Shown: piece after piece, positions 54,087 through 55,235 of the stretch
How the letters are laid out: the number at the start of each line of letters is the position of its first letter
How positions within the stretch are numbered: the first letter of the stretch is position 1
From: an uncultured Candidatus Saccharibacteria bacterium
GTDB taxonomy: Bacteria > Patescibacteriota > Minisyncoccia > Phycocordibacterales > UBA12088
DNA: 64,000 nt
Assembly: GCA_964531785.1 (NCBI GenBank)
Contig: CAZHFF010000001.1
Coordinates: forward strand, 293,997 to 357,996
Direction of reading: 5' to 3'
Translations under genes and position numbers: made by a program
Notes under the pieces: generated by a model
What the model saw: the letters and a program-made list of their open reading frames with translations, nothing else
Database searches by the model: none
Told to the model about the DNA's origin: nothing

Positions 54087-55235
54087 ATGCTTGATATCAG
54101 GTTCATCAGAGACAATAAGGACATCGTGCGCATGGCGCTCGAACGGCGTGCTGCCATGGTCGACCTCGACCGGCTCATTGCGCTCGACGATGAACGCATC
54201 ATGCTCCAGCAGGCGGCGCGCACGGGTACTTTGCGCAGCGTAGAGCAGGGCGATCTCGGTAAACCTTTAGCGGCGAACGCTCGGCTTGAGCAGGTCATGA
54301 GCGAATGGCAGCAGCTCATGATAGCCGTGCCGAACATACCCGACATGTCTGTGCCGCCGGCAGACCCGATGGTACGTGGTCACGAAGTGCGTACTTGGGG
54401 TGATCCACGGAAAATACACGCCGATACATCTCAAGTGAGCCAAGCGTACGGTGGCAGAGGGGTGCAGGGGCTGTACGGACCGCATGGACGTATTGCGCTT
54501 GCGGTCACCCTCCTTGCTCACGACCATTTTGTACGAAGTGGGAAGTACGAGCCGCTGCTCGTACCAACCCTGATCGAGAAGCAGGTGCTTATTGGAACGG
54601 CTGATCTGCCGCAGGGCCAAGCCCAATTTTGCCAAACCACGGGTGGACAGTACCTTGCTCCACGGGGTGCGGCACCGATCCTTGGAGCGTTCATGGACCG
54701 TGTCTTCGACCAGAAAGAGCTTCCGCTGCGGGTACAGGCAACCGTGCATTGTGCTACACACAGTGAAGGCGAGGCAGATGCTCTGACTGCCGGCAAACCT
54801 ATTGAGCACATCAGTGTGGACCAGGTCGTGCTCGCTGAGGCAAGTCATCAGAGCTCGGTCGACTCGCATGAGGCCGTGACCATGCATGCAGAAGAGTTTC
54901 TTAAACTCCTGGGACTGCCGCACCGGGTGCTGATCGCTCCTGCTAATGGTCTACGGCAAAGCGAGGTAAAGCGGTATCTGATCGAGGTGTGGTTGCCATC
55001 GGAGGAGCGATACGTCGAGATCGGCTCCACGTCGTATGCGCATGATTTCATTGCTCGTAGACTCAACATACGCTACCGTGATAGCACGGGGAGAGTGCGC
55101 TTTGTGCACACGACGGAGAGCACGCTGTTACGCCTGCCCGACCTTCTGACACCGCTCGTTTCGCACTACCAGGACATGGATGGCAACGTGGCTGTGCCCG
55201 ATGTGCTTCTACCATACCTTGCCGTACGTACGTAA
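54087..55235 (+). CDS. seryl-tRNA synthetase-like protein with degenerate catalytic motifs
   Basis: N-terminus [10 protein letters not shown], framework block [36 protein letters not shown], and C-terminal [14 protein letters not shown] are SerRS-like. Motifs 2 and 3 and the TAE site are replaced (see findings). Confidence 0.75.
   Translation: [382 protein letters not shown]

Follow-up and report, generated by a model that had tools for sequence, protein, structure and literature searches.

A seryl-tRNA synthetase-derived gene with ablated catalytic motifs in the ancestral serS slot of a Paceibacteria bacterium, probably retained as a non-catalytic protein

A serS-derived gene in its ancestral slot

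At positions 54087..55235 (+) of the 64-kb window analysed here (the whole stretch of 64,000 nucleotides taken from contig CAZHFF010000001.1) lies an open reading frame (ORF) of 382 amino acids (aa), starting at an ATG and uninterrupted by stop codons, which by domain matches, alignments and synteny derives from the gene for seryl-tRNA synthetase (SerRS) and in which the catalytic motifs of that enzyme are ablated. The host is a reduced-genome bacterium of the Paceibacteria, in the candidate phyla radiation (CPR). Upstream of the ORF is a pair of M16 peptidase genes (51422..54039, +). Downstream, on the same strand, come an ftsQ-like gene with a POTRA_1 domain (55242..56138), which starts 6 nucleotides (nt) after the stop of the ORF; a further operon member for a conserved 128-aa membrane protein (56191..56577), 52 nt after ftsQ; a gene for a membrane-anchored ClpB/ClpC-like AAA+ ATPase of 822 aa (56585..59053), after another 7 nt; and a gene for tRNA-dihydrouridine synthase (Dus; 59132..60181), the last syntenic gene of the block.

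We located relatives of this region through the adjacent Clp-like ATPase, which served as the phylogenetic marker, and fetched 41 loci. The closest are L007 (Clp-like ATPase 69% identical) and L037 (59–60%), which share 12 genes in order with the window (MnmA, two small ORFs, MgtC, a small ORF, SurA_N, the two M16 peptidases, serS, ftsQ, the 128-aa membrane protein, the Clp-like ATPase and Dus). In both, the slot occupied by the ORF holds a canonical SerRS of 424–425 aa with all motifs intact; we refer to the SerRS sequence type of Paceibacteria to which these two belong as type A. The core of serS, ftsQ, the 128-aa membrane protein, the Clp-like ATPase and Dus is common to L003, L006 and L010, and L004 is a further, distant relative with the serS–ftsQ core. 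Because the ORF occupies the same slot as canonical serS in its relatives, it is the positional ortholog of type-A serS and not an extra paralog. The serS–ftsQ junction is overlapping or near-abutting (−8 to +6 nt) in most relatives, and no terminator-like site was found between the ORF and ftsQ.

A preliminary description of this DNA, made from its letters alone, had taken the short distances between the ORF, ftsQ and the two genes that follow as a hint of co-expression with envelope or division functions. The gene order is, however, ancestral: canonical serS is linked in the same way, and the linkage is found with intact serS of two types (see below). It is therefore no evidence of a new role in division or in the envelope, and we rejected it as such.

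Catalytic motifs, arm and retained scaffold

The product of the ORF is collinear with bacterial SerRS. Pfam recognises the class II core domain tRNA-synt_2b (PF00587) at 48.6 bits and the N-terminal domain Seryl_tRNA_N (PF02403) at 36.2 bits, the latter match being confined to the first 44 aa, and the best matches in a search of solved structures are all bacterial SerRS (2dq3, E 6e-42). Against the hidden Markov model (HMM) of the serS equivalog, TIGR00414, the protein scores 163.9 bits, below the curated cut-off of 301.65; the canonical SerRS of L007 scores 436 bits.

We aligned the protein with the nearest canonical SerRS, which are those of Parcubacteria/Paceibacterota (37–40% identity to the ORF), in a set of 120 canonical sequences. 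At aa 192–196 (54660..54674, +) PRGAA stands in place of GTGEV (T193R, E195A), so that the serine-binding TxE loop is gone. Motif 2 (aa 222–245; 54750..54821, +) is replaced at R224T, R225H, E226S, R237K, H239I and F241H, with loss of the ATP-binding Arg, and its loop is 2 aa shorter than the canonical one. Motif 3 (aa 342–352; 55110..55142, +) is SLNNTALAxPR in the canonical proteins, and the ORF has ESTLLRLPD where NNTALAxPR would be expected, its Arg having become Asp (R352D); the register is unambiguous here, since FVH on one side and LxP/YQ on the other anchor it. In every class II synthetase, ATP is bound by the arginines of motifs 2 and 3. The coiled-coil arm (aa 27–80; 54165..54326, +) has lost about 20 residues at its tip relative to the full-length canonical arm, which serves the variable arm of tRNA-Ser. 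A second deletion, of 15 residues (FxFxPKSHIELMxxxM), follows the arm at the start of the catalytic domain (junction at 54408..54425, +), where the flanking aa 96–141 are heavily replaced.

Other parts of the protein are clearly recognisable. The base of the N-terminal domain (aa 1–34; 54087..54188, +) keeps about 80% of the ancestral residues in a sliding measure of retention, and the best retained block, at 65–80%, is the floor of the beta-sheet (aa 295–342; 54969..55112, +), which ends in FVHT. Motif 1, the dimer interface, is present (aa 152–162; 54540..54572, +), with V159 and P160 in invariant columns. The N-terminal MLDIxFIRxN, the motif-1 Pro, the KKYxIExWxPS block and YQxxDG...P are still those of canonical SerRS; the active-site-floor residues E311, S314 and T346 remain, and R237K and E245D are conservative. 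Altogether the ORF keeps 57% of the 129 columns with a conservation of 98% or more across the 120 canonical relatives (55 of 129 changed), and the canonical relatives retain 98–100% of the same columns.

Much of the preliminary description thus stands. It had proposed collinearity with SerRS, replacement of motif 2, of the TAE serine site and of motif 3, and a shortened arm, and all of these are borne out, although the motif 3 that it quoted for comparison, GSGLAVGR, is not the form of the Paceibacteria type A, which is NNTALAxPR. Its own caveat, that a corrected register might bring the arginines of motifs 2 and 3 back, is settled by the alignment, in which both are gone. The intergenic gaps that it gave agree with ours. 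Its view of a well-kept scaffold can be upheld in part only, given the proportion of near-invariant columns that have changed.

An AlphaFold2 (AF2) model built on an alignment of 62 sequences has a mean predicted local distance difference test (pLDDT) of 84.3 and superseded a first run with 8 sequences (66.8). It shows a short arm of two helices (aa 27–54 and 60–80), and its confidence is low exactly at the remodelled segments, aa 116–126 next to the deletion and aa 228–233 within motif 2. The top Foldseek matches of the model are SerRS structures, with template modelling (TM) scores of 0.83–0.86, which is consistent with a class II fold being kept in the product of the ORF.

At 90% identity, neither the ORF protein nor its neighbours cluster with any other sequence, and the sources of the sequence are one NCBI contig (360,178 bp) and a 26-kb contig in a Logan assembly of SRR9016294. 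We rejected an assembly artefact, given that the protein is identical in the two assemblies, the neighbouring genes are normal and the composition is native.

Acceleration specific to one gene

The SerRS-like protein of the window is 37–39% identical to that of L007, compared with 47–76% for the neighbouring genes, among them the fast-evolving FtsQ (52%); canonical SerRS are 64–73% identical among more distant pairs. In a three-taxon relative-rate test with the ORF, L007 and L037, the branch of the ORF measures 0.97 substitutions per site, against 0.17 and 0.23 for its two sisters, a ratio of 4.9. The same ratio for 11 neighbouring genes lies between 0.65 and 1.76. The SerRS-like gene has therefore undergone an approximately 5-fold acceleration that is specific to it in this lineage.

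Neither of two broader processes accounts for this divergence. Prolyl-tRNA synthetase (ProRS), RpoB, RpoC, DnaE, TopA and DnaG of the window all score above their curated cut-offs; since these other essential genes pass, the decay is limited to the SerRS-like gene, and we rejected genome-wide decay. Local hypermutation, for instance of the kind driven by diversity-generating retroelements, was likewise rejected, as the divergence covers the whole gene.

Indirect evidence of selection on the retained part of the protein

We compared the ORF with neutral simulations that started from the L007 gene, used the base composition of the window and ran to the observed retention, with 300 runs per target. 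The simulated genes carried 8–10 stops on average, and the ORF has none; the number of simulations that remained free of stops was 0 of 300, or 1 of 300 under a more conservative target, which corresponds to a probability of no stop of ~3e-5 to 3e-3. Every indel of the ORF relative to canonical SerRS is in frame, and its GC content by codon position (0.70/0.42/0.63) follows the pattern of the neighbouring genes. Retention of inferable ancestral residues is graded, from 0.58 in family-invariant columns down to 0.26–0.33 in variable ones, and the retained positions are clustered (p = 0.0002): the blocks kept are aa 1–34, 68–95, 243–283, 295–342 and the C-terminus, and those lost are aa 35–64, 96–141, 179–241, 284–294 and 343–353. 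Where residues have been replaced, the mean BLOSUM62 score is −0.32, as against −0.70 ± 0.13 in stop-free neutral simulations, about 1% of which reach the observed value (p ~0.01).

The gene has thus not evolved neutrally. With its open frame, in-frame indels and clustered, graded retention it does not look like a decaying pseudogene, and these features argue for protein-level selection that continues on part of the product. The earlier judgement that the ORF is intact and not a case of random decay is borne out by the same tests, and by the way in which its retention resembles that of the SerRS-like proteins described next.

Other catalytically dead SerRS genes in the serS–ftsQ slot

When 1.8 billion representative proteins were scanned in full with HMMER, further short SerRS-like proteins emerged, P0244, P0245, P0247 and the fragment P0252. 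In these, too, the TxE loop, the RxE...RVHEF of motif 2 and the Arg of motif 3 are missing, the arm is shortened and residues have been deleted where the catalytic domain begins; we call such forms dead. They belong to a distant Paceibacteria clade, here termed the HMTSV clade, which comprises L011/L028 (P0245 type), L014/L019 (P0244/P0512), L039 (P0247) and L026. Two of these loci, L028 (77% identical to L011) and L026, were added when loci were scanned for the N-terminal part of the Clp-like ATPase, which is specific to the family. The gene order of the slot in this clade is DprA (−), serS-like, ftsQ-like, small membrane protein, Clp-like and Dus, and the ORF of the window likewise lies upstream of ftsQ, the small membrane protein, the Clp-like gene and Dus.

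The locus L026 differs from the rest. Its SerRS-like protein (L026:637-1956, 439 aa) has a full-length arm, a motif 2 reading CFGKDTENQ... and a motif 3 that ends ...SPQ, and at 356 bits it is over the TIGR00414 cut-off, below which the other members of the dead clade fall. It is apparently an early stage of the dead form, judged by its sequence.

The close L011–L028 pair aside, the proteins of the clade are only 40–49% identical to each other, and the dead state must therefore be old. For L011 and L028 themselves, at a synonymous divergence (dS) of ~1, the ratio of nonsynonymous to synonymous divergence (dN/dS) of the dead SerRS is 0.11–0.14, next to 0.10–0.13 for ftsQ and 0.07–0.11 for the membrane-protein gene beside it. 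Purifying selection clearly maintains a catalytically dead SerRS in this clade. In L014 and L039 the dead genes persist even though ftsQ starts 90 and 22 nt downstream.

The near-invariant columns that the ORF has kept, out of the 129, coincide with those kept in the other dead forms (odds ratio 7–10, p 1e-7 to 7e-9). Codon degeneracy is not the cause of this overlap, since stop-free neutral simulations give an odds ratio of 1.06 ± 0.38, with a maximum of 2.35 in 300 runs. Losses coincide as well: 28 columns are lost in all four short forms, and 23 of these are also lost in the ORF. Jointly lost are the Thr of TxE, the motif-2 residues R, E, H, K, R, H, F and K, the motif-3 N and R, and the F and Y of GFRGY. 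Jointly kept are MLDIxFIxxN, WxxxMxxVPNxPDxxxP, one Gly and one Pro from the GTGxLP segment, the helix that follows motif 2, the YxxExxxP block, H341 and the C-terminal QxxxG....P. The base of the N-terminal domain is retained in all dead forms, and the motif-1 Pro (P160), invariant in canonical SerRS, in the ORF and in most of them.

The annotation of this group is inconsistent. P0512 (GenBank MCK5095861.1, locus tag KAR24_00745; L014:1044-2231 / L019:7349-8536) is labelled "hypothetical protein" at NCBI, and P0245 and P0252 are labelled "seryl-tRNA synthetase" at the Joint Genome Institute (JGI). Two further proteins, P0251 and P0382, are C-terminal halves of canonical SerRS with long tails rich in Arg, Ala and Pro, on high-GC contigs; they look like frameshifted or read-through calls, not fusions.

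A second SerRS type in the same slot

The slot does not always hold type A. In L016 (7058-8350) and L025 (7413-8699) it holds what we call type B SerRS, ~35% identical to type A and catalytically intact by sequence (FRREAG...RQHQF, GSAEH and ...AMGR; 350–376 bits against TIGR00414). Type B is a large family of Paceibacteria/Kaiserbacteria (e.g. P0418) and resides in the slot in L040 (10001-11287) and L041 (10001-11275) too; the order around type B is TopA–DprA, serS, ftsQ. In a tree of the Clp-like ATPase the two types are interleaved, L016 (type B) pairing with L010 (type A) and L025 (type B) with L003 (type A), and this interleaving suggests that the slot undergoes repeated in-place allele replacement of an essential synthetase. 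A functional takeover by another SerRS is a plausible route by which a type-A gene could be freed from its task, and type B is a candidate for the working enzyme in genomes whose slot is dead.

Other features of the window

Among the neighbours, the Clp-like ATPase (56585..59053) has a lineage-specific N-terminal part of ~440 aa that looks membrane-anchored, and Pfam clearly recognises only its second AAA module. The ~128-aa membrane protein (56191..56577, +) always precedes the Clp-like gene, and the pair is conserved across this group of Paceibacteria; we know of no described function for it. In L007 (12548-13756) Dus is called at 402 aa, compared with 349 aa in the window, and the match begins at residue 70, which points to an N-terminal extension or a mis-called start. 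Just upstream of the ORF, at 54026-54044 (+) and across the stop of the second M16 peptidase gene, lies a weak terminator-like hairpin followed by GTTTTTATGG; the region has 9 terminator-like sites, a number within the shuffle expectation of 7.0 ± 2.8.

Elsewhere in the window, the ProRS gene (9738-11129, +) scores 379.9 against the TIGR00409 cut-off of 306.7, with the 568-position profile matched in two stretches. The protein is only ~420–464 aa long and probably without the INS editing domain, and its true start may be downstream of the listed TTG. For DnaG, the longest ORF (36211-38397, +; 728 aa from a GTG) shares ~370 nt with the end of rpoC (32877-36584, +); its primase match begins at residue 157, so that the true start is probably downstream.

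The most probable explanation

We consider it most probable, at roughly 0.62, that the ORF is an in-place descendant of the bacterium's own type-A serS that is now a non-catalytic pseudoenzyme of the class II fold, retained as a translated protein. After the split from the closest sampled relatives, the gene would have lost its ATP- and serine-binding residues (the motif-2 Arg and Glu, the motif-3 Arg and the TxE loop), together with the end of the arm that binds tRNA. Without the two class II arginines, the loop of motif 2 and the TxE loop, the product almost certainly cannot make seryl-adenylate, and the truncated arm argues against recognition of the variable arm of tRNA-Ser, the selection of which is probably no longer possible. 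The base of the N-terminal domain, motif 1, the beta-sheet core and the C-terminal helix appear to be still under constraint, and the protein would thus be kept as a non-catalytic, most likely class-II-fold and probably dimeric protein, which might serve, for instance, as structural partner or as regulator of an active enzyme. Co-transcription with ftsQ is probable, and presumably applied already to the catalytic ancestor. The working SerRS of the cell is presumed to be encoded outside the 64-kb window.

Several points weigh against this explanation. The AF2 fold is not independent evidence for a retained scaffold, as the input alignment consists of canonical SerRS. Although the dN between the window and L007 is highest for the SerRS-like gene among the 11 genes compared (0.63–0.67), dS is saturated for all 11, and the pairwise dN/dS is uninformative. 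There is one sequence of this lineage, so that selection on the ORF is judged from indirect tests, with p between ~0.01 and 0.0002, instead of from dN/dS; a long canonical phase followed by a short and recent neutral burst can be neither dated nor strictly excluded. A second, active SerRS was found neither in the 64-kb window, by tblastn with type-A and type-B queries, nor in any of the 41 fetched loci, those with a dead gene included; by ARAGORN the window holds no tRNA genes either. The ORF shows no new motif, new domain or convergent gain that would point to a specific new function, and the data therefore speak of a retained function and not of a newly built site. Finally, a neighbour-joining (NJ) tree of SerRS places the ORF with the dead HMTSV clade, a grouping to which we return below.

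Alternative explanations

The gene may be a mere relic, whose function was lost when another SerRS took over and which is now drifting, its frame being open by chance or because nonsense mutations, by translational coupling or polarity, would harm the expression of ftsQ, the Clp-like gene and Dus, with no role left for the protein. We regard this as unlikely, though the main rival. Already 43% of the near-invariant columns have been replaced; the ratio of retention between the ORF and canonical SerRS is fairly flat across conservation classes (0.34–0.58); and the sequence is a singleton, for which a direct dN/dS is impossible. The tight and ancestral junction with ftsQ and the lack of a terminator-like site in between fit selection on the frame alone, and ~0.3% of runs remain stop-free in the more conservative simulation. 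Selection on the frame alone, however, fails to explain the clustering of the retained positions, nor does it explain the conservative replacements or the overlap with columns kept in dead SerRS under purifying selection. The persistence of the dead gene in L014 and L039, at a distance from ftsQ, indicates that coupling is not needed for retention.

Alternatively, recombination in the conserved flanking sequences could have put a dead allele from the HMTSV clade where the native serS had been, so that the ORF would belong to that family by descent. The SerRS tree joins the two, and the slot is prone to allele replacement, as the alternation of types A and B among close relatives attests. We nevertheless find such a transfer improbable. 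The ORF is closer to canonical type A (39–42% identity) than to HMTSV members (32–35%). The catalytic-domain deletions are different ones, the ORF being without FxFxPK..LM (15 aa) and having G122, R124 and G125, and the short HMTSV forms being without GFRGY and keeping FxFxPK. Residues typical of its own subclade (V14, V25, A218, Q255 and P356) are present in the ORF, and its GC content of 57.8% equals that of the host window (57.1%), unlike the 35–47% of HMTSV loci. An NJ tree of the Clp-like ATPase makes the window sister to L007, with N-terminal identities of 63% to L007, 53% to L010, 48% to L003, 40–41% to L006 and 27–31% to the dead-clade loci. The grouping in the SerRS tree is probably explained by long-branch attraction and shared losses, and the dead state of the ORF most likely arose independently, in parallel with that of the HMTSV clade.

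It is very improbable, in our view, that the dead ORF is the only SerRS-type gene of this bacterium, which, presumably an episymbiont like other CPR, would then get seryl-tRNA or the enzyme from its host. All related loci examined do have serS, of either type, in this one slot, and no second copy was seen in the fetched loci or the window. On the other side, aminoacyl-tRNA synthetase (aaRS) genes are, to our knowledge, missing in no bacteria other than extreme insect endosymbionts; the window covers 64 kb out of a contig that is at least 360 kb long; the age and diversity of the dead clade make it implausible that an essential activity has been missing for so long; and translation genes elsewhere in the window are intact. 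If the one-slot pattern did hold across whole genomes, dead-slot lineages would be without a SerRS of their own and would rely on the host for seryl-tRNA or the enzyme, the dead protein being kept for a non-catalytic function that the ancestral SerRS already had in its operon with division genes; we see only a slim chance of this.

It is barely credible that the ORF encodes a still-working SerRS with an unorthodox active site, or another ATP-dependent ligase such as a SerRS-like amino-acid:carrier-protein ligase: E311, S314 and T346 do remain, two changes are conservative and the window holds no other SerRS, but both ATP-binding arginines, the Phe and His of R.H.F, the motif-2 RxE and the TxE loop are gone, the motif-2 loop is shortened and modelled with low confidence, the arm for tRNA is cut short, the neighbours include no gene for a carrier protein or for another biosynthetic function, and the HMM score is far under its cut-off.

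Comparison with known systems

Canonical SerRS of type A (serS, TIGR00414), such as those of L007 and L037, have the same fold, domain order, slot and flanking genes as the non-catalytic protein that we propose, and differ from it in having motifs 2 and 3, the TxE loop, the full arm and the 15-aa segment. With the dead SerRS of the HMTSV clade the ORF has in common the slot, the catalytic columns lost and the scaffold columns retained, an intact reading frame and, L026 excepted, the shortened arm. The host lineages are far apart, the deletions and the GC content differ, and selection was measured there by dN/dS and for the ORF by indirect tests. Type B SerRS occupy the same slot in related genomes, with intact motifs unlike those of the ORF.

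The preliminary description had also compared the protein with SerRS-like amino-acid:carrier-protein ligases. These derive from SerRS of the methanogen type and have no N-terminal domain. As summarised in PMC9437257, the work of Mocibob et al. 2010 describes them as active adenylating enzymes that transfer the amino acid to a carrier protein and do not charge tRNA. They are, like the ORF product as we read it, bacterial SerRS homologs that no longer charge tRNA; their adenylation motifs, however, are intact, and in the ORF these are lost. The ORF, moreover, keeps the base of the N-terminal domain and is homologous to SerRS of the bacterial type. With motifs 2 and 3 lost, and with M16 peptidases, FtsQ, a membrane protein, a Clp-like ATPase and Dus as its neighbours, we excluded this identity, and the comparison does not hold.

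The other comparison made at that stage, with SLIMP, is more apt as an analogy. SLIMP has a catalytic pocket without the conserved residues and keeps the class II core, and alone it shows no ATP binding or aminoacylation (PMC10570016, PMC9437257). It keeps its coiled-coil arm, which it needs for tRNA recognition, and holds the tRNA for a catalytic partner in a heterodimer (PMC10570016). An ablated pocket on a class II core is found in the ORF as well, and SLIMP may be its closest functional analogue. It is, however, an animal mitochondrial paralog that arose by duplication, and the ORF is a bacterial positional ortholog with a truncated arm; the likeness is one of analogy and not of common descent. 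Because the arm is shortened in the ORF, and likewise in most of the parallel dead forms, a tRNA-holding role of the SLIMP type does not fit. The earlier proposal of a pseudoenzyme or repurposed paralog can be kept in its first half, an ablated, SerRS-derived pseudoenzyme, and not in its second.

Synthetase-derived pseudoenzymes are known mainly from eukaryotes, SLIMP among them, with a few bacterial cases such as HisZ. In the searchable literature we found no description of a SerRS in bacteria, CPR included, that is without catalysis and yet kept in its ancestral slot as a selected protein. The same loss in the same slot, with purifying selection in distant relatives, points to an undescribed bacterial "pseudo-synthetase". 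Its practical consequence is one of annotation: the SerRS-like gene of L026 passes the serS cut-off and would be counted as functional, and inferences on the completeness and metabolism of CPR genomes can err either way. The loss also raises the question of how these reduced genomes charge tRNA-Ser. It is seen in two far-apart CPR lineages, most likely as two independent events, and this suggests one of two things: the scaffold of type-A SerRS may serve a second purpose in these minimal cells or, alternatively, an essential synthetase whose task has passed to another copy may remain as a protein that can be put to new use.

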